Positions 1,189-36,051 are shown, counted from the first letter of the stretch. The stretch: 64,000 bases of DNA from Podospora anserina (GCA_017654855.1 CM030336.1:930001-994000); one strand, 5' to 3'. Notes: generated by a model not told the origin, from the sequence alone. Numbers and translations: made by a program.

Positions 1189-2269
1189 TCTTGAGGCGGG
1201 CTGTGTGTTGGGTTTTCTTTTGTTCAAGGGGGTTTGGGTCGGTTGGCATTTGGCAGGTATGGGAATTGGTGCATTGCTTTTTGGGTTGGGTTAGGATGCA
1301 TTATGGTTAGATGGTTGGGATGGGAACAGGGCTTTGGGTGGGAAAAGGGGCGTTTTGGGTATTTGGGTGTTTGATGGGCATAGGTAATAGTCTTTTTGAC
1401 AGGGGGGTTTAACTTCGCTGTTCAATCTTGACGTTTGTATTGACTTGAATTGTTATGCTACGGTGCTTTGCCATTCTCTATTCTGCAAGTATTGTTGTGA
1501 GTTGAGATGGTACCATCCCGGTGCCGTGTTCCTGGTGTTCCCTTTAACTGACCTCTCGAATCCAACATCCAGTACTGAGACTCTTGGCAGTGGAAATACG
1601 GCAGTAGTATTTAGCCAGGCTATGTCTTAAGACATGAGAGGTTGTACTAATCAACGAAATCATGCCTCTTCACTGTCTCCGACGCTGTACCCAAGCACAC
1701 ACCTTACTAACCTAATTCCAGCCCTGTATGGGCAGTGATACTTCTCGTGTTACTCTGATAGTACCAACCCAAATTCAAACCCAGAATTCTTATTTTGACA
1801 TGATTCATTTCTATGCTCAAAATACAGCAAAACCCGGTGCTTTCTGGTGAAGGGTATATCCTCATTGGCAGTCCTTCCTGCGCCCCTGAAGCAGGGCTAG
1901 CCACCAAGTACCAAGACTGCGGGCTTTGGGCCAACAAAACCGGCCTCGGTTAGCACTTATGGAATGGGTCGGGGAATTTGGAAGCAGTTGGTGCAAGGTT
2001 TGAAAGGTGAAACGCGTCACAGAGAGCTCATGGGCTCACAAGTGTGATTTTGTGCGATGACGTGTGTTGAGGCTCAAAGAGTGCCAAGCGCCGGTATTTA
2101 GGTGACATGAAAGAACATTTCGATGGTGGATGGGATGTGGCATTGTGAGTTGATTGCAATAGGTAACTGATATTGTATTGGTTGGAGTACGGGAGTTGGA
2201 TAATAACCGCAAGGAATGGATGCGGTGTGTCTATGACAGCCTCAAGAACCAGGAAGAGGGAAACAAGAA

Positions 2270-2542
2270 TTATGGGAAAGCAAGACGGTTCGGTGTGAGA
2301 AGGGGAGCGTGAGAGTTGAAAGATGTATTCGACCGGACCTTCATGGTCACTGGCAGAGGAGATGGCATTCCCCTTGCATCCATCGTAGGCGCTGTGAACC
2401 CCCAAGGCGCCAATTGCTTCCCTCTTGTTGGTGGACGACGGGTTTCAGTCTTGCCATTTTCTTCGGGAGGCCAGACAATCTTTTGGAACTTTGGCTTTCG
2501 GTTTCGTGGTGATAGCTTTCGTAGCACTTGGCGAAGCCCCAT
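2270..2542 (-). CDS. Possible small basic hypothetical protein (90 aa, MGLRQVLRKLSPRNRKPKF...)
   Basis: ATG at 2542 in CACAATG context after a pyrimidine-rich leader. No recognisable domain. Confidence 0.35.
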   Translation of the reverse strand: MGLRQVLRKLSPRNRKPKFQKIVWPPEENGKTETRRPPTRGKQLAPWGFTAPTMDARGMPSPLPVTMKVRSNTSFNSHAPLLTPNRLAFP

Positions 2543-3540
2543 TGTGTGTGATAGAGAAAAGAAGGGTAAGCTCAAGTTGGCGATTTTTCGTGATGGCGCA
2601 GTGTAAGCCTTGCCGCGGGTGGATCTGCTGCAACATGGCGTCTGAGTGGTTATAAAGCATCTAAATATGATTTGTGGGTTAGCACACAATGGGTTGGTGT
2701 TTTGGTTGATGGGCAAGGCCAACAAAAGGACGTCCGTTTTTGGCTGCATTGTCAATTGTTTCAGGGGATCTGTACTTTGTGAGCTGCATTGTTGCATTGT
2801 TCGGTCCCAACTGTGGACACCACACCCCTTACCCGTGCGGCGGGGATTTTTGTGTACCTCGTTGGGGTCCAAGTCTTACCTGTGATCCCATTCTTAGACA
2901 CCCTCGTTGGGCGGTCCGGCAGCTGCCGAATGGGTCGATGTTTACCTCCGTGCCGCAGTAATGGTGGAGCGGGCCGGGGTTGGCATCGGCCCAGCAAGCC
3001 GGGTCCGGGCGCAAGTCACCGTCCCCCTTGACCAGAGTCTGAAACAGGTAGACGAGTGGGCTTCAAACATCAAGCGGTCTACTGAACTGACGGGCAAATG
3101 CTGGGAATGTGACCGACACAGCCCGGAGATAGCTCTTTTACCCTGTGCAAAGCCCTCTGTGCACTCCGAGCTGACTCCGCCCGGACCGGTCCACCGGGAC
3201 CGAGACCAAAACAAACCACGGTACACGTCATTGAGAGAGCCCCGTATTTGACCGTTCAGTCATAGTCTGGCACCTTGGTCCGGATCACGGTCGACCTGTA
3301 GTACACCCATACTTTCGACACAAATATAAGTGTCTGTACGTACCCACCATCCGAATACTCGACGATCACTCCCTTCGCAATCTGTTTTTGACTCCATTCG
3401 GACCCTCAACGCCGTCGGTAGACCTGACGGACTCGCCTTGAACCAGCCATAACCCAGCCAAGACAGCTGCAGATCTCCAGATCTTCATTATCCCTGCCAG
3501 AGCCAAGACTGTAATTCAACAACACCAATCCAGCAATATT

Positions 3541-4323
3541 ATGAACCGCTCACGATATGTACCGCAGCAGTCTGCATATACCGCTGCTCAGTTCCAGCCG
3601 TTTGGTCCCGGACCTGTACCAACCCCAGCCCAGATGCCAGGCATGATCCCGATGGGATACCCACAGCAACAGATGTTCGGTGGCAGCCCGAACCCAAATG
3701 CCATGGGCGCTTCGCCAATACTCCAGCAACAGCAAGCCATGTCTCCAAACGCTCTGTGGGCAGCCAACTTTGCCAATGGGCCGATTATTGAGGATCTTTG
3801 TGCGCCTCCACAGATGGGACTGCCAACCTCGCCACCCATGAACGCCCTTCCACCTCGGGGCATGCCAATGGGCGCAGCAATTCACCCGTCATCCATGCCG
3901 CAGGTACAGAATGTGTTTGGCCTCCGTCAACCAGGAACACCACATCCAGGACACGGTTTTGCGCCGATGATGCCGGGAGTGCCAGCTCGCATGGTTGGAT
4001 CGTACCCTCCAGGTTATGCTGCCCAGCCACAAGGAATTGCATGGTCGCATCCCCACCAGCTTCAGTTCCAACAGCAGCTTCAGCAGCAGGCAGCTCAGCA
4101 ACATGCTCAGCAGCAGCAACAACAACAGCAGCAGCAGCAGCAAGGTCAGTTTCTGGATCCAACGATGATGCTTGGGAGGCCAAGAATGGAGCCTGGGTTT
4201 GCTACGGGAGGGAATGGTACCGAGCAGATGGGGTCGCCGTCGATGGGGAATTCGCCAGGTGCGCAGCCGTTGACGCCGGTGGAGAGTACGTTACAGGGTT
4301 TCATGTCGCCTGATTCGATCTAG
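3541..4323 (+). CDS. Gln/Pro/Met/Gly-rich low-complexity protein with polyQ tract (260 aa)
   Basis: Single ORF with ATG. CAG/CAA-rich tract at ~4070-4143. TATA-like ATATAA at ~3324. Confidence 0.75.
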   Translation: MNRSRYVPQQSAYTAAQFQPFGPGPVPTPAQMPGMIPMGYPQQQMFGGSPNPNAMGASPILQQQQAMSPNALWAANFANGPIIEDLCAPPQMGLPTSPPMNALPPRGMPMGAAIHPSSMPQVQNVFGLRQPGTPHPGHGFAPMMPGVPARMVGSYPPGYAAQPQGIAWSHPHQLQFQQQLQQQAAQQHAQQQQQQQQQQQQGQFLDPTMMLGRPRMEPGFATGGNGTEQMGSPSMGNSPGAQPLTPVESTLQGFMSPDSI

Positions 4324-4822
4324 ATTATTGTGTCTAGGTGCTGGTCGGATTGTTGGCGACGACGGCTGGGCGTGAGAACGACGACAATGACGATTTCATG
4401 ATCAAACATCGCATCAGAAGGAGCGTAGCATCGGTTCGGAAGGGAGGAGGGTATGGTTTGGAATTTCGTACTTGTCTGGGAATGGTTTCATTAGCGTTCT
4501 TGTCATCAGCGGGCGTATAGGAGTTGGGAATGGGTATAAGGCCTGGGAACTCCTAGAATATATTGTCTTATTAATTCCAACAAAAACTGTTAAATGAGGT
4601 TGTTCCGATCATGATGTGCCGTGCAGCCTGCAGGTATGGGATCCGATGCCACCAATAGGTGCCAGAGCGAGCGACCAGTCACAACGCTTGCTACGATGAT
4701 GAACCCCGCCCACAGAGGCCGCCATCCCTCACACGCTCTCCCACTTCTGTGGCGGCCCGACGAAGTTACTGACAGTCGTCTACCTAGCCACCAGAGCAGA
4801 TGGCAACACAATTGCAGTCGTC

Positions 4823-7800
4823 ATGTATCTTGTCAACGTAGCAACAAAAAAGCTCGAGACTTTTTCGGCAGACGACATTCCGCCCTACGCCATATTGTCT
4901 CATACTTGGGGCAACGACGACGAAGAACTTTCTTTTCGCGATATCATTGACGGACTCCTCAAGCCTGGAACACTGGGCGTCTTCAAACTCGATGGCTGCT
5001 GTAAACAGGCCCAGCTCCACGGGCTTGGTTACGTTTGGATCGATACCTGTTGCATCAACAAGTCCGACCATGTTGAGCTGAGCGAGGCAATCAACTCGAT
5101 GTTCAAGTGGTATCGCGATGCTGTGATTTGCTACGTATACCTTGCCGATACTACACCAAACACTCGCCTCTCGAACAGCCGTTGGTTTCGGCGAGGATGG
5201 ACGCTTCAAGAGCTCCTGGCACCTCAGGAGCTGAGTCTGTATGGTTCGGATTGGACCTTTCTCGGATCCCGAGAAGACCTTGCAGTGTCGATTGAGCACG
5301 CCACTGGGATACCCGAAGGCTTCCTTTATGGAGATGGTGATTTTTACCGGGCAAGCGTCGCTCAGCGATTCTCCTGGGCATCAAAGCGAACCACCAAGCG
5401 CAAAGAGGACATGGCTTACTGTCTCCTTGGACTGTTTGACGTTTCGCTGCCGATTATCTACGGTGATGATCATGCTTTCGCTCGGCTTCAACGCGAAATC
5501 ATGCTTAAGCTGCGCGACGATTCCATATTTGCCTGGTGAGAACAGCAAACAGGTGCAAAGCTCGTGTTTGACCTGAGCTAACCTATCAGTAGGGGTCTAA
5601 GCTACGAACATCCTACCAAGGAACAGTCACAGGACACAATTAGGGCATCTGCTGGGGCTCTCGCCGAGTCTCCGAAGGACTATGAGTACTGTGGGGCTAT
5701 TGTCTCTCATGGCTCCCACAGCTCTCCGTCAAACAAGTTCGTCATCGAAAGCGGATTCCTCTGTATTACAACAACCACCTACACAGCTCAAGAGGGCGGT
5801 ACCTACGGGCTTTTGAATTGTGGAACAAAAGATCACACAAGCGAGCATGTCGTTGGCATCCCTCTTCAGCACAGCACCTCTGGAGACTATTACTTTCGAC
5901 CCCACAGCTACAGCGCCAGGATATTCCCTAAGCAAACGATGGATTCCAGAAGCGTTAGCCAATCGATTCACATTCAAATGTTTCGGGATCAAGAGATATC
6001 GAGGTTGTCGAAACCGAGCTGGTCGATCCGACTCAGGACATCAGGTTGTTTACTCAAGGTCCTTGAGGTATATCCTCCAGGGCGTTTACACGACAAACTG
6101 ATCCACGTAGACCCCGACTTTGATTCCGCCGATGCTGTAGACCGGACCTGGGTACGGTTACAACGACACGGTAACGAGAGTCACCTGCTACCCGACTTCA
6201 TTCTAATATTGACCATCACACGACACCCTGAAGACGTACAAGGCAGACTGACTTGCGCCCTTGCAATTTGTTCATGTTTCACCACCTTGAAAGAGATCGC
6301 AGACAATGCGCAATTGTTATGGAAGAGCATCTTCATCCGAAAGCAAGCCAGCAACGTATCTCAGCACATCGGTGCCGCTTTGTGGCGAAGCTCCGATTCG
6401 CTAAGTGGCCACCCAAGGATTTCTGTTGTGATGTCGGAGATTGTCTCACCCCCTGATACCACAATCGATTTGACTCAGCAGCTGTCGAGGGTCAGATTGC
6501 CAGACAGGTTTCTTAGCGCCTTGGAGCACGAAGACTGCCTCAATCAGCGCTTGGCTCGGAAAGGTAACGAGCTTGAAGCCAGAGAAAAGCAGCTAAACAA
6601 AACACGCGACATGCTGACCGAGCTCAATAAGCAAATTGAGAAGCTGGAAGCGTCAAAGAAGTCATTGAATGCCGAGGACCACATCTCTGCAATGGAGGTG
6701 GAGAGGTTAAAGAACGAAAAGAGCAAACTGGAATCGAAGAGATTCAAGGTGAGCTTGAATCGAACATACCTTGAAGGATGTCTGGATGAACACCACGACG
6801 GGCGCAATGAATGGCTTCGGAAAATCAGGCTACCCATTGAAAAAGGGGATGTAACAGCCGGCGATGACTCGTTTCTTGACCATCGGCTTGAGAATCTGGT
6901 CAGGCTTCTGATTTCCGTGGAACGTTCCGCTCCGTTACCTTCAACAAAATACAACCCACCCCAGGATATGACACCACTGGCTTATGCCATCCAAGAAGGC
7001 TGCTACGAGCTTCTGCAGCGGCTTCTTGACCAGGGCGCTGATGTGAATGAGATATATTCGAACGGCAGGACTGCCCTCTTGGCCGCAGTAATCTGGGATA
7101 AAGACATGGTGGTCCAGGAACTGCTTGAGCATGGAGCAATAGTTTGGCCGGCACTGCTATGGTCGGTTCAAAACTGCGACAGAGCTGACACACTCTCACC
7201 ACTCCTCAAGCTAGAAGAGACGGCTCTTGAAGTGGATGCCGGGAGGTTTCGTATGCTACTGCTGCTGGCTGCGGAGCAGGGATCGAAAGAAATTATTCTA
7301 GAGCTTTTGTCGTGGGGCGAGGGCAGGCACACTTTCGATCTCAGCATTAAGTCGAATCAAGACGTTGTCTGGGCTGCTGCAGTCAAAAATCACGACTCGA
7401 CAGTACGGACTCTCATCAAGCATGATTGCAGTCCGAATCCGTTGAGCTGCCAGCGCTTACTCCTTCGATCGGTCTTAGAGAATTGTGCCAGCCTTCCCCC
7501 GGTCTTATGGGAGAAGAAGAAGGCGGACATACACGCCAAGTACATGGGCGGCCGCAATCTTCTATGGTTGGCAGCAGACCGGGGGTACGATTCTGTGATT
7601 GGGTCCTTGGCGCTGATCCAAACAGTGATTGACCCTGGCAGTATGGGGAGGCAAATGACCATCGCAGACGATTTTGGCCAGAACGCGCTTTCCCGAGCTG
7701 CCGAGAATGGACATGTTAACGCTGCTGTCAGATTGCTGCTCTGGGAAGATCCGACTGTCAGAGATCATGACGGCCACACAGCACTTTGGTACGCCGTAAT

Positions 7801-8290
7801 CAACGGACATGCAGATGTATTGCAGGCCCTGATGAAACACAAGTCCATCAGGGAGGATCTTTGGGAAATGGGAAAACTGTTGTGGTGGGCAGTCGAGACG
7901 GACCAAGAGCAAATGGTGGACGTTATCTTGGCCAATGACGGAGCTCTGGCCTTTCAGCATCGCTACCACGACCCTCATGCGCTTCTCTGGAGTGCGCTTG
8001 GAGAAGGTACTACCAGGATTGTGGGAAAACTCTTTGCATATCGAGAGTTTCAGGTTCACAGTGTCGAAATGCTCCAATATGCGGAGAAACACCGATATGA
8101 TGACCTGGTCAAGCTCTTGTCCAACCCACTGACATTGGCGCTCCAAGGTCGAATGGTTGTGGTTGATCGGGTGAAGCCTGAGACGGGAGACAAAAAACAA
8201 GTGAGGTTTGGGCACCACGATGGAATTGCCAAGTTTGGAGGAAGTATGGTACCGGTTGAAACGTTGAGAGAAGTAGAGGATGAGAGCTAG
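4823..8290 (+). CDS. HET-domain protein with DUF8212-like segment, coiled coil and C-terminal ankyrin repeats; intron 5536-5592
   Basis: HET motifs YAILSHTWG, WIDTCCINK, ELSEAINSMFKWY and SRWFRRGWTLQELLAP. Intron GTGAGA..GCTAAC..TAG joins SIFAW|GL in frame to the 5813..8290 ORF. Heptad region ~6540-6740. Ankyrin motifs TPLAYA, GRTALLAA, GQNALSRAA and GHTALWYA. Confidence 0.9.
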
Positions 8291-8483: not shown

Positions 8484-10548
8484 TCAAACACGACACAACC
8501 TCCCATTCTGCCCAGCAGGGTACCCATCCGCCGTCGCAACCCTCCACTCCTCACTTCCCACCGTCGTCTGCGCCCAAAACAACCCCCACGGATCCCTCCT
8601 CCCCTTGATCTTCAATAGTTTCTTATAATTCACTCCGAAAAAGCTACCCTGCCAATTCTTCTCCGCCGGATCCCCCTCATTCATATACGACCCCGCCCCG
8701 GACGTCAACTGCTTGAACACATCGGTGTATTTATATGTGTGCTCATCATTCGCCTTTGCCTGAGCAGCTGTCCACCTAGCAGGGATAACCTCCATGAGCG
8801 CAGCAGAGAGAACAGTCTCCCTCCAGGCGGGGTGGACAGCACTGTTCTCACACCCGGGATACCCAGCCTTTTTGCATGTTGGGGCGTAACCCCAGCCGTG
8901 GAAGACGAGACCGCCTTCTTCAACGCCCGAGCGGATGGCGGCGAAGGTCTTGTTCCACAGGGCGGGGTCGACGAGGTTCTTGCGAGGAAAGAGGCGGGAG
9001 CGGTAGCGGGTGTTGGCTGGGTTGGAGGAGCCCGTTCTTTGGCCGTTGCCGGCGTAGAGGGTTGGGGGGATTTGGCCTGATGAGGGGAGGGAGACGGGGA
9101 TGGAGAGGGCGTTGAGCTGAGTGTATAGGGGTTGAAGGGCGGCAATGGCTTCGGAGGCGGGGATGTTGGGGATGATTTGGTTGGAGGTAAAGGCGAAGCT
9201 ATTGTTACCGAGGGGGAAAATGTAGCTGAAGCAGTAGCCGCCGAGCTCTTGGACTTTGAGGCAGTAGTGGTAGGAGATCTTGACGCCTTCCCAGAACTGG
9301 TCTGGTTTATTATTCATGAAGTTAGTGTTGGGGGGAGGTTGGCCTGTAGCGACTCTGATGGGGAGGGGGTAGGTGCCGTCGGTGGAGTTGCTTGGGAAGC
9401 CGATGTTGCCGAAGTTGAGGGGAACGGTGACGGTGTTGATGGGAGGGTAGGCTTTGACCACGACGGAGGTGATGACGCCCCAGGTGCCTGTTCAGTGTGT
9501 CAGCATACATAGGATCTCCCAAGAAGCCATTTCACGAAGACTTACTGCCACCACCACCCCTCAACGCAAACCACAAATCCTCATGGTTGAACGGATCGAC
9601 CGTCAGAAACTGTCCGTCGGCAGTAACAACATTGATTGACAAGACCTGGTCCGCCCCAAGCCCATACTTGGATGTCAACGTCCCATGCCCAGCAACAGAC
9701 ACCCAACCCCCCACAGCACCAACCGTCCCCCAGCCCGGTCCAACAAGCGAGATATTACTCTTGAACATGTGGTTAAACAACTCAAAAGACTCGATCCCAG
9801 CCCCGACGTGCGCCGCAGGACCGGTGTACTTGCCCATCGTGAAGCTGGGCAGATATTCGAAGGTCTTGAGGTTATGTACCCAAATACTCAACGACCCAGC
9901 ACCCATCGACCGTCCACCAAAGTCATGGCCGGTATTTCTACGCTCTTTGGTCAGCGATATACTACCCCATCCTCATCATCACCGCAAGACCACTTACTTG
10001 ATCACCACCCTCAAGTTCTTATTCCTCGCAAAGTTCACCGCAGCCTGCACATCCCTCACGCTCGTCACATTAACCACATACTCTGGCCACCCACCCCTCT
10101 CACACTCCCCCGTGGCGTTAGCACTCAACACGCACGTGCTCCCCTGAGGCCACTCCGTCAGCGTCGTCAACGGCTCATCAAGCCAGAAGTGTGTCTGTCC
10201 TGCTTGGGTGGCGAGCCACTGGCAACGTGTCTGGTTTTGCAGCGGGCCAGGGTAGCACGCCGCCTGTGCTGGCTCGGGTCGAAGCAGTGAGCCGTTGAGG
10301 AAGTTGCCGAACTTGGACCATTCCGTGGCCGAAGGCCAGTCAGATGTCCCGGGAAAGGCGCGGCATTTGGGCTTGGAACGGACAGGTTTGGATGCGTCGC
10401 CGAAGGAGAGGGAGGGAAAAGAGCGGATGGAGGAGGGGGTCAGGACGGTTTTTTCGTAAGGGAAGAGGACTTTGGTTTGTTTAGCGGGTTTGGGACTGCC
10501 GGCCGCGGCGAGACCGAGGAGGGAGAAGAGGAGGGCAGCGTGCATCAT
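8484..10548 (-). CDS. Secreted FAD-linked oxidoreductase (FAD_binding_4 + berberine-bridge-enzyme domain); two introns
   Basis: Signal peptide MMHAALLFSLLGLAAA. AVNFARNKNLRVVIK|NTGHDFGGRSMGAG covalent-His motif, YGLGADQVL, DLWFALRGGGG, and C-terminal YMNEGD..NYKKLLKIK..DPWGLFW. Introns near 9940-9997 and 9493-9545. Confidence 0.9.
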
Positions 10549-23191: not shown

Positions 23192-24815
23192 ATGGAGACC
23201 TCGGACCGGACGGTGGAGTTCATCTCCACCGTCACCACAATGACGGTGATTGCATTTTGCGCTGTGTTCCTCCGGCTTTTTTCAAAAGCCAAGTACGGAA
23301 AGGAGGTGATGCTGGACGACAACCTCATGGTGGTCGCCTGGGTACGCGTTTCCCTCGTTTGCGAACCCTCACACACTCGCCGCGTGCTAACGGTCAACAA
23401 CAGCTCCTCACGCTCGGAAGCCTGGCGCTGCTGCTAGCGTCGGTAGCCAACTTTGGCTACACCCTCCACCAACAGGTGGAGGACAAGTTTCCCAAGGGCG
23501 CCGCCGCCCTGATCTCGGTGGCCCAGGCCCTGAGCTCTTGCTCAGGGGCTGCGGCCAAAACTTCCGCCGCCCTGCTGCTGTGGAGGATCACCCCGGTGTT
23601 TTGGCAGAGGGCTCTGCTCAAGACCACCACCGCCATCACCATCTTGACAACCCTCATCGTCGCGGTGGTGATGTCGGTCAAGATCAACGACAACAACATG
23701 CAGCAAGAGTGTGTCAACAAGACTACAGCCTGGAACTTTGGAATCTTCTATGCTGGTAAGTTTACTCTGTCTGACGGCGACAAAGCCTGGTAACTAACAA
23801 TGCTGGGGCTGGGACTAGTATGGGGCGTTATCTCCGACTTTATTTTGTCCCTTTTACCCTGGATCATGGTCTGGAAGCTTCGGATGAAAAAGGCGGAGAA
23901 GTACGGTCTCGCCGTCGCGCTGAGCATGGGTTGCGTGTGGGTCTTTTCTTCTCCTCTCCCCATCCCATTCTCGCACCGTAACTCACCACCACTACTCCTA
24001 CTATAGAACAAGCATCCTCGGGATTATGAAACTCTCGTACATCAATTGCGTCTCTGTCCTCGACCTCGATCTCTCTTGTAAGTTCTTTTATTTAGACCGC
24101 CCTAAACCTCCACTGACCACCCTCCTGTCCAGACACCTCGATAGACCTCATTACATACCACTTCGTTGAACCGACCGTAATCATCACTGCGGCCTCCATT
24201 CCTGCCCTCCGCTTCTTTCTTCATAACCAAGTTACCGCCATGCGCCGCTCGTGCCGCGCAAGCGAGCTACTCGATATGACCAACCCAATCACGAATCCTT
24301 CACGAGCCAGCCGAAGAAGCTTCCTCCCCCGGCCCCCAGCTCAAGCACATCAACATCATCACCCCCTTGCTGATTCCGAGTCCATGATCTCTTTGTCCGC
24401 AATTTTGAGAGGTTTACCCCCCTCCGCGGAAGACCCACCACCTATGCCACCGATTCGGTCTATGCCCGTTGCCCGAGTAGGCGTTGCTGGCGCGAGTTCC
24501 AGCGAAGGAAGAAATATGACGACTGTTACCACCATCACCGGAGGACATAACAACATTAGATCAGCTAGTTCGAATGAACAGCAGCCCAAGGAAGGAGGGA
24601 TTCTCAGGACGGTGAGAGTTGTTGTTAGCAGCGAAGGAGAGGACTCTACGTTGACCTCGGAGCCGACGGCCAGCATCAGAGAGAGTTACAGAGAGGCCAG
24701 AGAGCCTAGAGAGCGTTCGTGGAATACTTGGCCCAGTGGGCGCAGAGAAAGCGATTTGGAGATGGGGGATGTGATTAGGGAGAACGAGCGGAAGGGTGGG
24801 AAGAAGAACGAGTAG
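23192..24815 (+). CDS. Pth11-like / fungal rhodopsin-domain integral membrane protein without CFEM; about four introns
   Basis: VFLRLFSK..LDDNLMVVAW, AAKTSAALLLWRI, SDFILSLLPWIMVWKLRMKKAEKYGLAVALSMG and EPTVIITAASIPALR. Introns near 23342-23403, 23756-23818, 23935-24006 and 24078-24132. Confidence 0.85.
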
Positions 24816-25090
24816 CATTTGGGACGGCATTTTGCTTGCTAGATGGATGGGAAGATTTGCTATCGCGAGTTTATGCATGTGTACTACCTGGCATAGACCT
24901 GCTATATGAGCATCAAGAGGTCACAGGTGAGAGCCAACTCGGCCAATTGAAGACATGGAGATATTTTTGTCTCTTTTTTATTCTCATACATTTTCCACTG
25001 TCCAAATTCCGGCTGTTGAACCTACATCTCACCCGGGGTATCACTGTTGAACGCCAGTACACTCACACTCGCTGCCTATCAGACAACAAT

Positions 25091-26245
25091 CTAAACAGAC
25101 AAATCCCCCCCCCAAACCTCCTTCGCAATCTCGACCTCCAGCCTCACCTTGGCCCACTGCTCCTCTTCGGTAAGATCATTCCCCTCCACCGTCGAGCTAA
25201 ACCCACACTGATGACTCAAGCAAAGCTGGTCCAGCCCCTGCGGACAATACCCCGCCGCCTCCTTCAGCCTCCTCTTGATATCCTCCTTGTCATCCAACGC
25301 GGCCTTCTTGCTGCTCATCACCCCCAAAACGACAATCTTTCCTTCGGGCAAGAACCTCAACGGCTGGAAATCGCCCGACCTCTGGTCGTCATACTCCAAA
25401 AAGTAAACATCCACATCCAGCTCCTTGAACAGCGTCTCCGCGACGGGTTCGTAACCGCCCTCGGCGAACCACTGAGACCGAAAGTTACCCCTGCAGAGGT
25501 GGATGCCGATAACCATATCCTTTGGCCTGCCCGCAATCGCCCGGTTGATCAACTTTGCGTACTGCTTCGTGAGGGCCTGGGGGTCGTCCACACCGTGGCG
25601 CTTGGCCGCCTCGGCGCGCATCCCCTCGTCGCAGAGGTACGCGAGGTTGGTATCGTCCAGCTGGACAAACCGACATCCAGCAGCGTAAAGGTCGGCAATT
25701 TCAGCCTGGTAGACTTGTACCAAGTCATCAAAGAATTCCGGGTCGAGGTTGGGGTAGGCCTCTGTAGAGATCGCCTCGCGACCACCACGGAAATGGACCA
25801 TGGTGGGGGAGGGGATGCAGACTTTGGTTGTGATCTTTGTCTTGCCGTCGGATACCTTGGCGACTTCCTTTTCGACAAACTTGTAGTCCTCTACCTGGAT
25901 GGCGTTTGGGTGGCCTAGCTTGCCCGAGACGACAATCTTGGGGGGTGTCACGCCGTGGGAGGTGACGTTGGTGGAGGAGAGGGAGCCGTGGCGCTCGACG
26001 CCGGCGAGGTGCTGGAGAAAGTCGATGTGGAACCAGGCGCGGCGGAACTCGCCGTCGGTGATGGACTGGAGGCCGGATTGGACCTGGGACTTGACCACGG
26101 TCGAGATGTGCTCGTCTTCGATGGCGCGGAGGGAGTCGAGCGTGATGGACTGGGTGTCGAGCTTTTCGCGGGCGTCGAGGATGGGTTTGGGGCGGAGGAA
26201 GGAGCCGACGTGGTCGGCGCGGTAGACGCCGGCGGGGAGGGGCAT
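25091..26245 (-). CDS. Single-barrel cobalamin-independent methionine synthase-like protein (YxjH-like, 384 aa)
   Basis: ATG at 26245. Motifs RADHVGSFLRP, ITDGEFRR, VQLDD, zinc ligands HLCRGN, FLEYD and CGFSS, and QWAKV. Intronless. Confidence 0.9.
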   Translation of the reverse strand: MPLPAGVYRADHVGSFLRPKPILDAREKLDTQSITLDSLRAIEDEHISTVVKSQVQSGLQSITDGEFRRAWFHIDFLQHLAGVERHGSLSSTNVTSHGVTPPKIVVSGKLGHPNAIQVEDYKFVEKEVAKVSDGKTKITTKVCIPSPTMVHFRGGREAISTEAYPNLDPEFFDDLVQVYQAEIADLYAAGCRFVQLDDTNLAYLCDEGMRAEAAKRHGVDDPQALTKQYAKLINRAIAGRPKDMVIGIHLCRGNFRSQWFAEGGYEPVAETLFKELDVDVYFLEYDDQRSGDFQPLRFLPEGKIVVLGVMSSKKAALDDKEDIKRRLKEAAGYCPQGLDQLCLSHQCGFSSTVEGNDLTEEEQWAKVRLEVEIAKEVWGGDLSV

Positions 26246-27400
26246 TTTGACTTTTTGTTTTGTGGTGGTGATACCGGGTCCGAGGGGTTGGGAAAAAAAT
26301 AGGCGTCTTTTACGGATGGGGACAACGAGAGAATGCTGAACGGGATGAACTTGACACACACTACGCACACACGTCAGAAGATGAGGAAGAGGGGGGTTAT
26401 ATACAACCGTCCCGTAGGTGAGGAGTAGAATGCCATTGTATGGAGAAAAGGACTTGGCAAAACCGAATTGTGGATCTCTAGATATCCATAGTCTGTTGAC
26501 TCCATCACCTTTCCCACTCCAACAACCTTCCTGTACCGGCATCTACGTCCTCTACCCGCTGTATCCGAATTAGCGATCGAATGGCAGCTCACCCATTATC
26601 GTCAGCCATGCCCCAAACGGGCCTGGTCTGCCTTCTTATGGTGCGGGGTAGTGGGACTATTCGCTCGTACCTTGCGCTGTGTTGTTTGCCTCCATCAGAC
26701 GGGAGTTGTATAGCGGAGAATAGATTCCCCTCATGGTGTGTGGTGCTGTTGAGGCTGATTTTGCTGCAGGTGGCGAGGAGACCAGTCCGGCAGTGCGGGG
26801 AGCGTGGTCCGGTTTGCCGAGACGCCCTAGGAGAGAAGCGACATGCGCCGGTCCGTGGGATGAAGGCTGGGCGCTTCGGCATATGGAGTTCAGCTGGGGG
26901 CGAGGAACACTTGTTCGGAGATCTGCGAGATGGCGATCGAAACAGCGACGATGGGAACTTGGGAGAGGGGAGATTTGTGCAGCCGCGCGGATGGTAGCTT
27001 TGGGGTGTTGCATCCTACGAACAACGTCAACGATTGGCCAATTGCAAACACCACACTCACCTTGATTTTGACCTGAAAACGAACCCCTCGAGACTCTGCC
27101 AATTGCCGTGAAGTTTCCAAACAGTCGTCAATGGCAGGTCGTTGTTGGCCGGCATCCGAGATCGCATTCAAAGTGGATCTCCAGGACCCCCCCCGTTTTC
27201 ACGTCTTGGCATCAACCTTGCACCGGATGGCATCATGTGAAATTGGACTCCACGCTGTCTTGAATGTCTAATTCCACATCTCTACCTCTACTCTGAGTAG
27301 GTTCATTCTTAGATCCCGCGGGAGCTTCAACACTCCGAATATGTAGCTACCTATATAGTCACACCCGACAAATTTTTTGGCTCAGTCTGTATCGGTCTCA

Positions 27401-27465
27401 CAAGGTGAGCAAAAGGTGAGCAAAAGGTGAGCAAAAGATGAGCGCCAGTGAGCATTACCCTGAGC
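27401..27465 (+). repeat. 11-bp tandem array (CAAAAGGTGAG)n decaying into TGAGC units
   Basis: caaggtgagc aaaaggtgagc aaaaggtgagc aaaagatgagc gccagtgagc attaccctgagc. Confidence 0.85.
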
Positions 27466-27658
27466 TGAAGTGTGTCCAAGGACCGTTCGGCTATACTTGC
27501 CGCAACCAAAACTGATCATAACTTTCGTTTTCTCCTTGCGCGTGCCAGTAGCCCGTTATTAAACCCACTAGAACGACTATTTATATTAGAATTGTAACTT
27601 TGCACATAGACGATTTTGTCTATTTTTCTAATAGAAGAAGACACTTATAAATTGCATA

Positions 27659-28262
27659 ACGTATATTATAAGCGAGCCACGCATATAAGCTAGCTCTGTA
27701 CTCTCCGTTACTCTACCACAGCTATCCTCAACTACACTATAACATTCGGAAACTACAAGAATTAAATTAGAAACAGATGAATTAGCTGATTCTGCAGCTT
27801 CCTAGCATGTACGTGTATCATAGCCAGACTTACCGCACACACTATAGCACTGAACTTTCGTACGAGCCCTTCCTGCATTACCGCTATCCTGCTGCGTTTC
27901 TTACGCTGCTTCCCCACCTACGGCCTTCTAGCCAAGTATATCATTTGCATTTTGTATACTAAGTGATCCTCCGAGCCGTACACGTGTTTTTTTAGCTCTT
28001 CGGCGTTTATTTAGTGCCTCGTTGGCCTTGTAGAGTAAAGTGTTCTCTGCGCGGAAAAGAGCTACGTAGTATATTATAGCTATTATACTTTTAGTAAGCT
28101 AGTCTACAGTAATTAATATTAAATTTGGGCGCTATTTTAATAGTTAGTAATGTAAGTCTTAATAAACGTTAACTACGAGTCAGCCTTTTAGGGGTTATAT
28201 AGTGTTTGGAAGACTTAAAGTTGTATAGTGCCGGATCGTAAGTTTAAAGGTGTTAGCGTACG
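27659..28262 (-). mobile_element. Truncated, RIP-mutated Fot1/pogo transposon 3' end, related to the 58691-60655 element
   Basis: TA followed by the degenerate TIR ACGTATATTATAAGCGAG.. at 27659. The minus strand reads KANEALNKRRRAKKTRVRLGGSL..CYSVCGKSGYDTRTC (CCHC tail) and aligns by eye with ~60060-60655. Confidence 0.88.
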
Positions 28263-28506
28263 ATGCTTTTCAGTAGTGTTATTTTTGTCGCTTGTCAGCT
28301 ATGAATGCGAACTTGGGTCTTGGTCCCTTGATGATTGTTTACTTTATTGGAAGATATAGTGTCTACCTAATAATATCTCCACTTATTACTCGACGACTTC
28401 CCGTCAACCTACAGTGCCCAACCACTTTCCAAGCGTCTTACATTCTAACCATCGACTTGTACATCTTGTCTCTTTGCACTTTTTATCAACAACATCAAAA
28501 CCAACC

Positions 28507-28917
28507 ATGGCCTCTCTCTTGAAGAAAGCTGCTGCGAAGGCCCCCCCTGCCAAAGCTCCTGCTGCCAAAGCTCCTGCTCCTGCTGCCAGGGCTCCTGCTG
28601 CCAGAGCCCCTCCAGCTGCTAGCACAGCAAACGGTACGCAATCCAGAAAGTTTCCAAGGATAATGCTCTTGTTGCTAACTTGGCTTCTTCCTCACCATAT
28701 AGTGCAGGCAGTGACCGCCGCAATGGCCAAAACCAACATTGGCAGCTCTCAGGGTGATCCCTGGGCAGCCCTCAAGGCGAAGAATCCTGCCATGTACGCC
28801 AAGATTATTGGGGCACAAGCGGCGAACGATGCTGCCATCAAAGCCGGCAAAATCAAGCCGTTCAAGGTCGTTATTGCCAAAGTCAGGGCTGCGGCCCCGG
28901 TCGTCGGAAAAAAGTAG
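28507..28917 (+). CDS. Small Lys/Ala/Pro-rich basic protein with AKAPA repeats; probable in-frame intron 28634-28708
   Basis: CAACCATGG start, 15-nt repeat units (GCCAAAGCTCCTGCT), and intron signals GTACGC..GCTAAC..CAG. Confidence 0.7.
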   Translation: MASLLKKAAAKAPPAKAPAAKAPAPAARAPAARAPPAASTANGTQSRKFPRIMLLLLTWLLPHHIVQAVTAAMAKTNIGSSQGDPWAALKAKNPAMYAKIIGAQAANDAAIKAGKIKPFKVVIAKVRAAAPVVGKK

Positions 28918-29400
28918 ATATCGGGACCAAGAGGATGGGAGGGGCAATGATCGGGCGGTCTGGTGACTTGGGGCGTTCAGAAACTATGCAATACAATTAG
29001 ATGATAGAGATGGTAACGGGGCTGGAACCCAGATTACTACATTTACTCACAAACTTATTGTCTGAATTGTGTTTTATCTTTCCAGGCGATGCGTTAAAGG
29101 GAATAGCAGCCCGGGATAACGTAATTGTGGTGATGAGACGCTATAGAGTTAATCCAGGTACGGCAGAGTACATAATAATATACCTCCGTAAGAGGCTAAG
29201 TTTTGGAGCACGACGCAAACTGCGCCGTTCTAAAGGATTCCGGGCCACCCCACCTTTACACCGAACAGTTCTTTAGGAGGGGTAGACGCTCACTGCCAGT
29301 TATATTATGTAACCCCCATTCCCAAACCTTCTTCGAAGTTCCATTGCAGCAGCCATCGCCCATCGTCATATCTATTCCATTAACTTCACCATCAACAAAA

Positions 29401-29892
29401 ATGGGCTCAACGACCATCATCCGCGGCTTCAAACTCTCCGTCGCAACCCTCGACGCCTTCCTCTCCGCCAACAATGTCGACGAAACATATGGAACCCCGC
29501 CCTTCTACGAGCACCACCTAGAAGACAAGGATCCTATCTCAAAGCTGCTCTTCTCTAAGATTTCCCACTTCGATCCCAACGCCGATAAAAATAAATTCCG
29601 CGTATTGATCCCCTCCATCGAAGGCATAGGCCGCGCTAAGACAGCGTATGTTGCTTACGCATGGGCTGCGGTACGGGTGCATCGCGAGGTTAAAATGGAC
29701 GAAGACCTGCCCGAGGAAATTCCCAAGGGGTTTGAAGAGCTTCGGCAGGAGATTCTGAGCTACTCCGGAAAAGGAGACGTGAAGGAGGAAGATAAGGTTC
29801 AGGAAGAGGGGAAGATTGGGATTTATTTGGTGGTTACCTATAATATTAGGGGGTATTATGGGAAAGAATTTTCAAGTAAGGAAGGTTTGTAA
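29401..29892 (+). CDS. Hypothetical protein (163 aa, MGSTTIIRGFKLSVATLDAFL...); 3' end shows RIP-like AT drift
   Basis: CAAAAATG start, gene-like codon usage and a globular-looking sequence. Confidence 0.75.
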   Translation: MGSTTIIRGFKLSVATLDAFLSANNVDETYGTPPFYEHHLEDKDPISKLLFSKISHFDPNADKNKFRVLIPSIEGIGRAKTAYVAYAWAAVRVHREVKMDEDLPEEIPKGFEELRQEILSYSGKGDVKEEDKVQEEGKIGIYLVVTYNIRGYYGKEFSSKEGL

Positions 29893-30029
29893 TATAAGGT
29901 TGTATGGAAGGGAGGTATACGGCGAAGAATTAAAGTGGAGGTCCGGAGGTTTTTAGAGATATTGTTAGAAACACGGTGCACTCTGCAATGGACCAAATAA
30001 TGGGGTTTTCAACTATGTGATTGATTTTT

Positions 30030-30497
30030 TACTATTAAACTAATTAGCTTAAGCTAGTTAACTAAAGAAATAATATATATATATATATTTATAACCGAAA
30101 GTATAATATTTCTCGAATAATATTATTTTTACAATGCCAGCCCGCTGTAATTATTTCTCATACGCTATAACTATTCCGTCCGTTAAATTTGAATTATATC
30201 TTATACTATTAATACTAAATATAATATCATTTATAAAATCCTTTGAAGTTTTAAAGTCGTAAAGGCTCGTACAGAGATAGTCTTCCGTATATTTAAAACG
30301 GATATTAAAAGCAGATAATTAATAGGAGATTAAGGACCTTACTGGTTCTACAAATTAACTATACGCTAATAACTTTTTATAATTTCATCCGTAATCTTTT
30401 CATAAACTACGGAACCATTTATTTCCTCCGTGTAATTTTCTAAGCCCCTATCTTTTTCCCGGCGAAAGAACTTTTGAGGGCTCTTCTTTTTCGGCAT
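30030..30497 (-). pseudogene. RIP-eroded N-terminus of a DUF3435 tyrosine recombinase (Starship captain-like)
   Basis: Manual translation from ATG 30497: MPKKKSPQKFFRREKDRGLENYTEEINGSVVYEKITDEIIKSY*RIVNL*NQ|YTEDYLCTSLYDFKTSKDFINDIIFSINS..IVIAYEK*(F)TAGW..RNIILSVIN, with intron 30293-30342. This resembles the recalled DUF3435 pattern W-K-x-F-T-A-G-W..ITLSVTN. Confidence 0.65.
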
Positions 30498-30875
30498 TAT
30501 AAAAGGTATAGCAGAGAGCTAGTGTAGCGAAAATGTAAGGCCGATAACGATGAAGTGTGTAAAGAAAAGTTTTGCGGCAGTGATATAGACATAGGTGGAT
30601 GGGAGAGAAGTCGTGTGGTAGGTGGTAAGACGGATGGAATAGCCTCTTTATGTAGCCAGAACTGGAAGAAGAAAAGTCGCGCAGAAGGCAGGTAGGGAGT
30701 GACGGATTTATCATATCAAAATAGCTACCACGTCCCAGAGTCCCCTAAAACGGAGAGCAAATACGCTGGCGAGCCCATTTCTTGGTCCCCGTTTTGGCGG
30801 AAGATTCGTCCCTGTAGGAGAGGGAGACTCCACGGATTATAAGAGCGTCGCGTAAAGTTGGCGATTTTGGAGAAT

Positions 30876-30932
30876 GACGAGCGTAGGGTGAGCGGTGGTG
30901 AGCTCAAGGTGAGCCGAGGGTGAAGCGAGCCT
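30876..30932 (+). repeat. GGTGAGC array with 10-12 bp spacing
   Basis: tagggtgagc ggtggtgagc tcaaggtgagc cgagggtgaagc gagc. Confidence 0.7.
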
Positions 30933-32267
30933 GATGTTGGGCTAACCGTGCTCGGACGAGACAAAAATGTTTTTAGAGACCGACTACCCAGGTAGGTACT
31001 CAGTAATTTTCATCACGTCATGCCCAAACCCCAACTCATGTCCGGCCGAGAGAAAAACGGCTACACGCATCACAAGACTCGGGGATTTAAACTTTTCAAT
31101 CTATCTGGTACCTCCCCGTCATCAAGGCGGTTTTAAAGCTCTCGCCTTATACTATACAACCGTGATACGGAGCACCATGGTACAAAAACCCCCGTATCGT
31201 CACTGCAGGCGACCGTGTCACTGTTCCGCTATTCTTCATTTCAAATTACCCGCTTCCTCGTACCACAGCATTGTGCCTGTTTCGTTGGGACGCCGCGTTG
31301 TCGTTGAGACTGTGTCACCTGCGGTGATGAGAATTTTGAGATCGACTCATGTGGTTTGAGAGGAGAGTGGGGTGAGTGAGAGTAGGTGGTGAGTGAGTGA
31401 AGTTGATGAGGTAAGCAGTAACTGCCGCTGAAGACTGTGGGGATGTCGATCATCGAAACGTCCCCTGAAAATCTTTTCTGTATCCTTGGCTCGTTCCTGC
31501 AGCACATGTAAGACAATTCATTGAAGATTTCTCACTGTTGCAGTTCCCGTCGTGATGGGACAAGGAAGTTTCCGCAGCGGTTGCTTCCGTGTAGTTTGGG
31601 GCTCTTCAATGAAAACAAAGATCACACAGAAATCACATGCAAAATCCCGGAGACGACAACATTGTCTTTTTGAAGAATGTAGATATGGTGTCCCGCATCG
31701 GAACAAGAGAAATTAGAAGTTATTATACACATAGGGAATGAGGTAATTCGCAAAACATGAGAACAAAAAGCCACCACCCATTTACACGTAGAGGGTTTAA
31801 GTAACCTTTTGCCCATGGCTGCGCTTTCCATCAACAATAAAAACACACGAGATATACCACTCATCAAGGTCACACCTTCCCGTCAGTCACCCGGGGAAAG
31901 TTCACCAAGAAAAGCCAGTTTCAAACCATCCAATCATCAAGAACAAATGCCTCCTTGTCATGTCGCCCTCGTCCTCGTCAAGTCATCTCTGTGATGGGTT
32001 TTCTTTTTTTTTGTGAAAGAACTCTTCTTTATTTGTTGTTTCTCCAAAAGTGTCGAAACTAGAGGGAAAAAAAAACTCGTTTGTCGCTGCAACGAACGCG
32101 CTCGCGATATGGGGTATATGATATCAGACCAGAACGACTTCTCCTGCATCCTCCGAAAAAGCCAAAGCCACCACAACTATTCCTCTTCCTCTTGACGACA
32201 CACCAAAAGCACTCGTCTATTCTTCATAGATGGTTGGAAAAGCCGAATCGAGCAAAAAGAAGCCGAT

Positions 32268-34073
32268 TTAAACAGACTCCTGCTTGAGGTAGGCGCTGTT
32301 GGTGGGCTGAGACCCGGCAAAGGTGGTGTGGGGCTTCCACTTGGCCGAGGTGCGGGGGGTGGTCTCCTCCATCATCTTGTCGACCTGCTCGAGGGAGAGA
32401 CCCTTGGTCTCGGGGACGAAGAGGAAGGTGTAGATCAAGGCAAAGGTACAGAGGGCGCCCCAGACGAAGAAGACGGACGACTTCATGTTGCCCTTGTCGG
32501 TACCGACCATGTAGGGGGTGATGACGGCGATGATGGTGTTCCAGAGCCAGTTGGAGGCGGTCGAGAGACCAACGCCACGGGAGCGGATCGGCAGAGGGAA
32601 GATCTCACCAATGAGAATCCAGGCGCCGGGACCCCAGGTGGAGGCGAAGAAGAAGATGAAGATCGCAATGAAGGCGATCTGCGCGTTAACGGCAGAGATG
32701 TTGTTGGCGAGGGTGCGCTCGGGATCCTCCGCCGTGGGGGCGGGGAAGGTGTGGTTGAAGCCGACCGTGACACCGATGATGGCGACGAGGAACTGACAGA
32801 TGAGCATGCCAAGAGCGCCCCAGAGGAGGATGGTGCGGCGACCGAAACGCTCAACGGTCCAGAAGGAGATGGGGGTCGAGCACACGTTGATGACGGTGAA
32901 GATCATGGAGATGACGAACGAGTTGGAAATGGCACCGGTGGACTTGAGGAAGGGGGTCGAGTAGTAGAAGATGAAGTTGACACCAGTCCTAAACGCAAAA
33001 GACATGTTAGCCAGCCGATCTTTTTGATTTTCTCTTTCGCGTCTTGTTCAGTAGAAACCTACCACTGCTGCATCATCTGAAGAGAGGTACCGAGGATGGT
33101 CTTGCGAAGGTTGGAGTTGGCCTTGAAGAGGGAGCCCTTGAAGCAGTTGGCCCACGAGCCGAACCAGGTGGTGTTGGGAATGAGCTGACGCTCGTACTCC
33201 TCGTTGGCGACAATCTCGGCAAGCTCGACCTGGATGTACTCAGAGTCCTTGGGCTGGCCACGGAGGCGAGCGAGAGCATCGGTGGCGGCGGGAAGGTTGG
33301 CCTTCTTGACAAAGTAACGGGGAGAGTCGGGGAGCATCATGAGACCACCAGCGAGGATGATGGCCCAGAGGAACTGGATGGCAATGGGAATGCGATACGA
33401 GCCAGTGTCGGTTCTACCCTCAGTGGCGTACACAACGCAAGCAGCCAACATGATACCGATGGTGATGCAGAATTGGTAACCAGCGACCAGAGCTCCACGG
33501 ACCTTGCGGGGGCACTGTGAAGCAGAAGCAGTTAGCACACACATTGGCATCCCTTGGCTCCGGCGAATATCTCCTACTTACAATCTCGGACATGTACAGA
33601 ATGACGACAGCAGACTCGAAACCGACACCGATACCAGCGATCAAGCGACCGGCAACGATGGCAGCGAGGGGATCACCGAGGCCAGTGATCATCTGAATGA
33701 CAACACCGATGATATAGATGAGGCAGCCGAGAATCACAGTCCACTTGCGACCAATCCAGTCGGCGGCGTCACCAGCAATGAGAGCGCCGAAGAAGGTACC
33801 GCAGGAGAGAATAGAGACGATGAGCGAAGTCCGGGACTCGGAAACAGCCTTGGCACCGGCGAATTCGACGGCGTCGATGAAGATCTGGGAGCCGAGGACA
33901 CCGTTGATGTAACCGGAGTCGTAGCCGAAGAAAATACCACCAAAGGAAGCGAAGGCGCAGAGGAGGTAGGCCTTCCAGGTGACGGGAGCCTCAATACGCT
34001 CGACGTCCTGGGTAGTAGCCAGGCCGCCGACGTGGGAGGCGGCCGGGGCCTCCTTCTCGTCGTGAGTCGACAT
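32268..34073 (-). CDS. MFS sugar porter (high-affinity hexose/pentose transporter); introns ~33514-33581 and ~32989-33062
   Basis: FGGIFFGYDSG, DWIGRK, GRLIAGIGVG, PDSPRY, QQWTGVNFIFYY, ERFGRR, EIFPLPIRS and PETKG. Confidence 0.95.
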
Positions 34074-36051
34074 GATGATGAAAAAGGTTTCTTATACGCC
34101 TTGCTCGATGAAGAGATTGTATTGTCGATATGGTGGTGGGGGAGGGGCGATGCCTTCTCTTGGTTGTGTAAGTGGTAACCGTGACCCGAGGGGTTGGATC
34201 GATGGGAAAGGGTGTAGAGCGGGATGGGGAGAAGAAAAGAAGCTCGACCGGTGAGACGGGAGAGAGGGTTGTGATATTTGAAGTGAATGACAAGCGGGTG
34301 CCACTGGGATGGAAGGGCCTTTGGATTTTTTGGCTGGCATGGGTTACATCTCTTTGGGTTCCAGGTTTTGGAGCATGTCACTCTGCGGAGCGTTGGCTGC
34401 TCCTGGCCAGTCAGGAGACGCGGAGTACTGGGGAAGAGTCCATTACCCCCGACTTGGCAAAAGTATGCTTGGGGTATTTCGCCGCGTTCCCGCCGGGACG
34501 ACTGCATTGTTTGCGGGGACCCTACTTACAAGGTGGCTTCGAATATGATGCATAGGGTTGGCCAAGCTCACCATGTAGCTCGGTAGCTATGGGGTCCATG
34601 CAGAATACCGCCGAGCATCTGAGGCACCCCCCTGGCCCATTGCGACTCTTGCAACGCCCGGGGACACGCCGGTCGACTGCTAGCCGGTCCTCTTCGTCCC
34701 ATCTCTTACCACTCCCCCGGGCTTGCTCCAGCTTCCACCGAGCCACCCCAGAAGCCGCCGGCCCTCTCGACGTTGCAGCTCCCGTGGCCGCGGTGCCCCG
34801 TGTGTGTGTGTGGTGGTGCACACCACCTTGAGCCTAGAACGGGGGTGGTCAGGCAGGCAAACGAGCAGCATAAATTGACCGAGTCGGTCCGGAGCGTTGC
34901 ATCTACACTTGCTCGCCTAACCCCAGATCTTGCGTTGGCCTCGATGAGATGAGCCTGGGGGGAGAGGCGGAATTCAGGCGGATGGCGGATGCGGGTTGTG
35001 TAAGGTACGGTAATATTACCGTGGCATTCCACGCTTGTGACAGTCTCTTCCGTTCCCGAGGCCAACCCCCGACCGAACGCGGGCTGGTTCGGCCCCACCG
35101 ACCAAAGCCGCTGACATTCAGGATGGCCCATGGCAGACACATGATGGCTCCAAAGAAACTTTGCCGTGAACCTTGCCGCCGGGTTTGGGTCACCATTGCC
35201 CTCGTGAGGCTCCATAGTGACCCCCATACAACGATGACGGCCTCAGCACTTACAACGATACACTAAACTACATGGCTACAGTACATTCCACAGGGTTTGG
35301 TGATGGCCACGTGCGCCAAGTCCCTGAACAGCATCATCACCTGTTTCCGGTATTGTCTTGTATGAGCTTGTCTCGATCGTTGAAGATAAGCGGGTTGTGC
35401 GGCTCCCTCACAAGCGAGCGCCAACTTCAACCGCTAGGACCGATCAGAGGATTGTTTCTTTTTTTTTCTCGCTGGCACATGTCGCGTGGTCGCCAGAATG
35501 TGGAAGGCTTGCCGAGCGTATTGGATCGTGAAATCGTCGCGCCACCAAAAAAAAACAAAAACGGCACCACTCGGCCATTGGCACGGCGATACTTTTTGAA
35601 CTACAGCCCATAAGGGCCATCACGCTTCGGACTCGTCAAGTCAGCACCAGTCAACTGACCCGTGCCTTTGGAGCCGTTGGGCTGCACGTCAAAAGGCAAC
35701 TGGCCAGAAGGACGTTGGCGCGATGGGTCTTCAATATTGGCTAGCCCGGAGCATTAGCCAAGAAGGCAAGGAGTCGCCGGCTAAAAACGGTCCTTTTCTG
35801 GGGACTTTTTCTTGTCATTTCCCCGTGCCCCAGTTTTTGTTGTTTGGGGTCCCCATGGGTAAAAAGCTCAAACCCCAGATTCACCTGGAAAAACTTGGAG
35901 AAATTCGGGGAAGCTCCATCATGCTCATCGCCATACTTGCATTTTTCACCGATCATCTGGGGAATAGCGGGCATTGTGTGGGATACACTATCTGGGGAAC
36001 AGGGGGAGTCGGAAAAACTTCTTGACAATAGTTTCTCGATGAGAGTCCGGA

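Follow-up and report, generated by a model that had tools for sequence, protein, structure and literature searches.

The locus and its borders

The 64,000-nucleotide stretch of Podospora anserina DNA analyzed here (GCA_017654855.1 CM030336.1:930001-994000; below, the window) contains, at 27347-30989 and in minus orientation, a 3.6-kb segment that combines direct RGGTAG repeats at its edges, genomically repeated ends, two small genes and a fragment of a Fot1-type transposon. With a probability of roughly 0.78, we regard this segment, in a member of the Podospora anserina complex, as a derelict Starship of the Enterprise family: captain-less, internally deleted and affected by repeat-induced point mutation (RIP). 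Its features, in the order of the element's own orientation, are the following:

30990-30995, minus: CTACCT on the minus strand, the flanking half of the putative palindromic target, outside the element
30984-30989, minus: GGGTAG on the minus strand, 5′ direct repeat and putative target-site duplication (TSD)
30288-30983, minus: 5′ terminal repeat, a putative counterpart of the repeat bufo (463 bp as published) together with further Enterprise 5′ homology
29990-30287, minus: RIP-like, AT-rich stretch interrupted by stops in every frame, at the place expected for the start of a captain gene
29401-29892, plus: intact gene for a 163-residue protein conserved across Sordariomycetes, antisense to the element
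28507-28917, plus: small Ala/Lys/Pro-rich gene, 113 residues if a 69-nt intron at 28634-28702 is spliced, also open unspliced
27656-28221, minus: terminal ~570 bp of a Fot1/pogo-type element, RIP-mutated and truncated internally, with 71% identity to 60658-60089
27353-27601, minus: 3′ terminal repeat, a putative counterpart of the repeat schoutedenella (published length 231 bp)
27347-27352, minus: AGGTAG on the minus strand, 3′ direct repeat and putative TSD

Read on the minus strand, the segment starts with CTACCT-GGGTAG (30995-30984), followed by tcggtctc, and finishes with gtgactatat-AGGTAG (27352-27347), the plus-strand letters being CTACCC at 30984-30989 and CTACCT at 27347-27352. GGGTAG and AGGTAG therefore stand in direct orientation, one at each outer edge, exactly where an initial annotation of this DNA had placed an RGGTAG repeat, with both letters and coordinates correct. 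The Spok block/Enterprise of Podospora is described as duplicating RGGTAG within a partly or fully palindromic context (ATACYT-AGGTAG, CTACCT-AGGTAG; PMC8092012), and its true target is apparently a palindrome of 10-12 bp (Gluck-Thaler and Vogan 2024, PMC11162782).

The hexamer itself (RGGTAG/CTACCY) occurs at chance level, with 28 + 31 = 59 sites in the window and five plus-strand CTACCY sites in 26000-32500, and its background frequency is likewise mentioned by Vogan et al. 2021 (PMC8092012). The 12-mer CTACCYRGGTAG at 30984-30995 is the sole one in the window and was matched in 0 of 100 dinucleotide-preserving shuffles (27 of 100 when one mismatch was allowed); the 5′ junction, CTACCT-GGGTAG, has the full 10-12-bp palindromic context of an Enterprise target. 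The left border lies within GTAGCTAC-CT, a short palindrome.

Repeated ends enclose a single-copy interior

The repeat structure of the region was derived from the contigs of four public runs (four studies), placed on 25000-33000 at a likeness of at least 80%. Both ends of the segment, 27348-~28470 and 30288-~31000, have further copies in the genome, its middle is single copy, and the borders coincide with the edges of the genomically repeated DNA. In run X1, summed depth is ~109-113 over the flanks and 28471-30072, which serves as baseline, and rises to 262-3721 over 27136-28470 and 394-953 over 30340-31140; 27348-28470 and 30340-31140 lie at 2.4 to 34 times this baseline. De Bruijn graph assemblies break at repeats, and in every run the assembly breaks at ~27504, 27989, 30763 and 30906.

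In all four runs, another contig contributes 232 letters of its own that align to 27348-27601 with 26 mismatches and 24 gap letters. This copy stops at 27348 and has unlike DNA on both sides, extending past 27348 for 464 letters where the contig has 750 and for up to 8336 where it has 8623; since it ends at this position in unlike DNA, it is a solo left-end copy that stops inside the hexamer. Position 27388 is covered by 4-5 other contigs. At the right end, other contigs align to 30288-30824/30858 and to 30476/30527-30801, with up to eight covering position 30733, and the repeated DNA spans ~700 bp. Of the listed places at which run X1 shows a difference from the other copies, 210 of 276 are transitions, as expected for RIP. 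Taken together, the unique CTACCYRGGTAG at the right border, the repetition of both ends and the left-end copy that stops at 27348 establish that the borders are real.

The ends of Enterprise are described as the formerly 'unclassified' repeats bufo (its first 463 bp) and schoutedenella (its last 231 bp), which genomes contain in dispersed form, left over from partly deleted copies and frequently with homology reaching past bufo (PMC8092012). By their lengths, the 232-letter left-end copy would agree with schoutedenella, 231 bp with RGGTAG at its 3′ end, and the ~700-bp right end with bufo plus extended homology.

Terminal repeats and heptamer arrays

Enterprise is described as devoid of terminal inverted repeats (TIRs) (PMC8092012, PMC9156397), and its ends as unrelated and without structural features (PMC8092012). 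The segment likewise has no TIRs: the best inverted alignment between its ends scores 19, against 19.2 ± 2.4 in shuffles, and 26 against 22.3 ± 3.1 under transition-tolerant scoring. A TIR element with TA duplication, as the letters TACCT...TAGTC on both sides might suggest, was rejected because the inverted similarity does not exceed that of shuffles; the apparent TIR-plus-TA pattern follows from a palindromic target combined with a TSD. A reading of the ends as long terminal repeats (LTRs) was also discarded, the sole direct likeness between them being a 27-nt heptamer array.

This direct match of GGTGAGC heptamers scores 29 (shuffles 18.9 ± 2.4, with a maximum of 27 in 200). Three copies of GGTGAGC (GCTCACC on the minus strand) lie at 27404-27432 with 11-nt spacing and three more at 30887-30914, the spacing in both arrays being 10-11 nt; both arrays run on one strand at a distance of 58-103 nt from the tips of the element, and together they hold 6 of the 15 GGTGAGC sites of the window. 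Phased in this manner, they could be candidate recombinase-binding arms, and as a guess, the 24 gap letters in the other left-end copy might partly correspond to a different number of heptamer repeats. The arrays common to both ends, together with the two-ended 3.6-kb structure, may be new. A 17-nt tandem repeat rich in GGTGAGT, which resembles the end arrays, is located at 31363-31410, in single-copy DNA just outside the right border.

Search for a captain gene

Kirc, which belongs to the DUF3435 family, is described as the first open reading frame (ORF) of Enterprise, and the element is defined by a Kirc-homologous tyrosine recombinase gene together with a TSD (PMC8092012). The region where such a captain would begin, 29990-30527, is AT-rich (25-26% guanine plus cytosine (GC) at 30001-30400) and contains stops in all three minus frames; its part at 29990-30287 has a positive composite RIP index and is not repeated at a likeness of at least 80%. 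With stops read through as X, no minus frame of 29990-30990 or 27353-28500 gave a Pfam match to DUF3435, nor did any of the 39 ORFs scanned of the 54 in the window that have at least 170 residues. A full HMMER search with frame 1 of the AT-rich stretch against 1.84 billion representatives likewise returned no DUF3435, its one marginal hit (E 1.9e-4) being an orphan protein of 152 residues with no Pfam family and no longer relatives, for which the ESM Atlas gave only weak leads (DUF3684/DUF8348 clusters, score 0.92). A word-based search of longer proteins with the ATG-started frame 2 came back empty.

The captain relic of the initial annotation accordingly finds no support in these searches, and the assignment of the stretch to a captain is one of position. 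As for the RIP-ruined first ORF proposed there, the base composition and the stops are as stated, and no search showed a gene. At most ~170 codons are left in the AT-rich stretch, which may represent a short N-terminal captain relic.

Interior genes and the Fot1-type fragment

The gene at 29401-29892 is intact and, by contig depth, single copy. Its 163-residue product has 76 homologues at E ≤ 0.001 among 100 candidates, with identities of 94% to Podospora comata (the nearest named), 70-77% to Chaetomiaceae and ~58% to Fusarium and Stachybotrys, a pattern that on its own places the window in the P. anserina species complex; no relative was found in the PDB at E below 0.1, and a Pfam scan assigned neither interior protein to a family. 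It differs from the P. comata protein at 10 residues; judged from the codons, the window copy has the G-to-A or C-to-T state at most of them, and the changes cluster toward the 3′ end of the gene, beside the AT-rich stretch. Such a pattern would fit RIP that spread from the neighboring repeat into a gene that is still intact. Several Glu-to-Lys, Asp-to-Asn and Ala-to-Val differences near the 3′ end set the copy apart from its P. comata orthologue and also from the consensus of the family. Many homologues (P0003-P0016) sit on very short contigs (~1-7 kb), and some Chaetomiaceae genomes (Parachaetomium inaequale, Staphylotrichum tortipilum) contain three paralogues, which hints that the family is often found in repeated or hard-to-assemble DNA.

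The smaller gene at 28507-28917 likely has a 69-nt in-frame intron, a prediction made from its sequence. Of the two intact genes that had been proposed, the 163-residue one is thus well founded, and this second one, with a predicted intron and one weak relative, is plausible only. Both genes would have arrived as cargo.

A metagenome scan with the 163-residue family yielded 11 loci. Two of these, L003 and L004, come from one organism (their overlap is 99.9% identical) and carry a weak relative of the small protein (36% over 67 residues, E 4e-5) ~1.1 kb upstream of the 163-residue homologue; the presence of the pair there indicates that it is older than Podospora. Its neighbors in these loci have nothing else in common with the window and include no methionine-synthase-like or sugar-transporter genes. 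Also on L003, both 2-6 kb upstream of the gene pair, are a DUF3435 gene (1762-3537, minus; Pfam E 1e-44 to 1e-64) and the end of a Fot1-type element, which has 76% nucleotide identity to the window fragment and nearly its extent; across the four features (1762-3537 minus, 4788-5326, 7655-8143 and 9146-9622), the pair homologues lie ~4-6 kb from the DUF3435 gene and ~2-4 kb from the Fot1-type fragment. The DUF3435 gene points away from the pair, the ORF upstream of it has no similarity to the AT-rich stretch of the window, and at the expected border of L003 there is no CTACCY and no 12-mer. The association, which could be a coincidence or a recurrent one, is a lead rather than evidence for the pair as Starship cargo.

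Fot1/pogo elements belong to the Tc1-mariner superfamily, whose hallmarks are TIRs, a TA target duplication and a DDE transposase. The fragment at 27656-28221 shows the highest repeat depth of the region, ~30 times baseline, and its identification in the initial annotation is supported by its 71% identity to the end of a related element at 58688-60658, which is 1.97 kb long and has 49-bp TIRs (98%) and TA flanks. Neither copy gave a Pfam match to a DDE or helix-turn-helix (HTH) domain, heavy RIP being the probable reason.

Relation to known Starships

The segment has in common with the Enterprise/Spok block (Starship family 6) RGGTAG direct repeats, the CTACCT-RGGTAG context and the absence of TIRs (PMC8092012, PMC11162782), as well as ends that are dispersed repeats (5′ ~463+ bp, 3′ ~231 bp) and the same host complex (PMC8092012). 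Unlike the Enterprise copies described in PMC8092012, which range from 39 kb (Wa139) to 247 kb (the Wa137 Spok block) and are polymorphic, it measures 3.6 kb, contains no detected Kirc/DUF3435, Spok or named crew genes, has RIP-changed ends and is fixed in all sampled runs. Large cargo and the accessory genes of Starships (DUF3723, FRE, PLP, NLR) are absent from its 3.6 kb, the interior genes being without a Pfam family, and the smallest Starship called by starfish is given as 15,020 bp (PMC11162782).

Other counterparts are degraded Enterprise copies and solo bufo/schoutedenella repeats, among them a 5.5-kb copy in P. comata strain TD and a ~1200-bp 5′ remnant at the Psk-7 site, which are described as captain-less, with end repeats and TSD retained and homology beyond bufo, and are read as past insertion points, as is done here (PMC8092012). 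The segment differs in being smaller than the 5.5-kb TD copy and in retaining both ends, which enclose two conserved genes that are intact. Captain-less 'Derelict' regions have also been described in Macrophomina phaseolina (Gluck-Thaler et al. 2022, PMC9156397), and 'derelict' is the recommended term for RIP-mutated inactive copies (PMC11162782). Like the M. phaseolina Derelicts, the segment appears to be an old copy with a degraded captain and some cargo kept; unlike them, it is tiny and has defined ends, the former being portrayed in PMC9156397 as large, lacking defined ends and recognized by cargo (DUF3723, FRE, OCH1), families of which none occurs here. Like miniature inverted-repeat transposable element (MITE)-like or Ds-like derivatives, it retains both ends, has lost its recombinase and would in principle depend on activity in trans; unlike such derivatives, it shows no sign of amplification or recent movement, having a single-copy interior and a fixed position.

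Relics of this kind having been published, including the 5.5-kb P. comata copy (PMC8092012), the novelty implied at first cannot be maintained: the general phenomenon is known and the locus mainly confirms known biology.

Presence across runs and mobility

Words sampled from 24500-33500 were looked up in 24 listed runs, in which an empty site would leave ~60% of them. Twenty of the 24 runs, from seven studies, hold the segment with 96-99% of the sampled words; these represent one species, and seven of them are possibly the source sample itself. No presence/absence polymorphism with a clean empty site, a hallmark of Starships, is seen in any of the 20 holder runs, and within this sample the locus is fixed.

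Present mobility has no support, the sampled runs being fixed for the locus and its ends being mutated. The suggestion that the segment might be mobilized in trans is thus not sustained, being confronted with its presence in 20 of 20 holder runs and with ends whose differences from other copies are for the most part RIP-type transitions. It is very doubtful that the element is a natural minimal Enterprise substrate, with ends of ~250-700 bp and heptamer arms, that the Kirc of a Spok block could excise or move in trans in a cross; if true, this would define, for the first time, what a Starship lacking TIRs requires in cis.

Proposed history and alternatives

According to the reading that we prefer, an Enterprise would have inserted, via its Kirc tyrosine recombinase, into a CTACCT-RGGTAG palindrome in the interval between a methionine-synthase-like and a sugar transporter gene, duplicating RGGTAG. 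A Fot1-type transposon would then have inserted into the Enterprise, deletions would have removed the captain and most of the interior, and RIP would have mutated the repeated parts and leaked into neighboring DNA. What would remain is a bufo-like 5′ end (~700 bp), a short AT-rich stretch, two small genes, a Fot1-type end fragment and a schoutedenella-like 3′ end (~250 bp). The RGGTAG edges, the palindromic 5′ context, the absence of TIRs, the repeated ends and the single-copy interior all speak for the internally deleted Starship with both ends that was initially put forward; its captain relic and its mobilization in trans find no support.

Several observations weigh against a derelict Enterprise. 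By the published definition, which calls for a Kirc homologue and a TSD, the segment is not an Enterprise and only a putative remnant of one, there being no DUF3435/Kirc signal in it or in the scanned window ORFs. None of the 20 holder runs shows an empty site, all of them keeping at least 96% of the 24500-33500 words, and the two direct repeats differ in their first base (G versus A). The likening of the ends to bufo and schoutedenella is by published lengths and descriptions; in this regard, an inner boundary at 30527, 463 bp from 30989, was found in two of the four runs only, the other two aligning from 30476, and was set aside as a length coincidence without weight. The 163-residue gene, finally, is widely conserved in Sordariomycetes and hence could be a resident rather than cargo.

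The last point belongs to the alternative that survives best, an unlikely one in our estimation, in which two independent Enterprise relics lie around resident genes, one represented only by its 5′ end (30984-30989) and the other only by its 3′ end (27347-27352), the genes never having been cargo. Such an arrangement would suit a 163-residue gene conserved from Podospora to Fusarium, which with its small upstream partner forms a pair also present in another fungus (L003/L004) and so looks like an ordinary resident, as well as the frequency of RGGTAG sites (59 in 64 kb) and the solo ends and recurrent use of insertion sites that are reported for Enterprise (PMC8092012). It needs, however, two same-orientation insertions within 3.6 kb, each losing exactly its inner end, by a family that, judging from depths and run sizes, has only ~5-13 other copies in a ~36-Mb genome. 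Moreover, no inner RGGTAG partner with bufo-like sequence is found, the sole inner CTACCY (28363) lacks a following end-like sequence, and the neighbors of the gene pair in L003/L004 are entirely different, which weakly favors movement of the pair. In our reading, the structure would stem from a single insertion and not from two.

That the ends are instead another unclassified repeat family, or two unrelated ones, with RGGTAG coincidental and nothing Starship-derived, is highly improbable: the missing captain, the likening of the ends to Enterprise termini by description and a hexamer at background frequency, as Vogan et al. also note (PMC8092012), would fit, but they are opposed by a unique 12-bp palindromic context exactly at the repeat edge, by a 232-letter copy that ends within the hexamer and so matches a 231-bp schoutedenella with RGGTAG at its 3′ end (PMC8092012), by the absence of TIRs, LTRs and TA or other TSDs that would otherwise explain the ends, and by a host from the very species complex in which bufo and schoutedenella were defined.

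If the segment is indeed a derelict Enterprise, it adds one more fossil of the activity of this element in Podospora and illustrates how decay can reduce a giant transposon with cargo to a few kb, leaving intact conserved genes at a new chromosomal address, one route by which Starships would reshuffle ordinary genes. In practical terms, it offers a compact natural example that holds both recombination ends, with the heptamer array as a candidate Kirc binding site.

Genomic setting

A cobalamin-independent methionine-synthase-like gene (25094-26542, minus) and a gene for a sugar transporter (32271-34091, minus) flank the segment, and the window is an ordinary gene-rich fungal region with HET/ankyrin, BBE, P450, thiamine pyrophosphate (TPP)-enzyme and carboxylesterase genes. 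The GC content of the segment is below that of the flanks, and RIP-like patches occupy 27400-28400 and 29800-31000. An Rfam scan of 26000-32500 found zero families and hence no 5S ribosomal DNA or transfer RNA target.

The Fot1-type element at 58688-60658 is full-length and extremely RIP-degraded, with GC down to 9.5% in 59001-60000 and microsatellite-like AT arrays, and adjoins a fragment of a gene for a flavin adenine dinucleotide (FAD)-binding domain (minus, near 61.6-61.8 kb). Within the sugar transporter, at 32209-32742, summed contig depth at 80% likeness goes up 1.5- to 2.5-fold and several 'skip' joints occur, a rise that most likely reflects paralogous transporters and not a mobile element.

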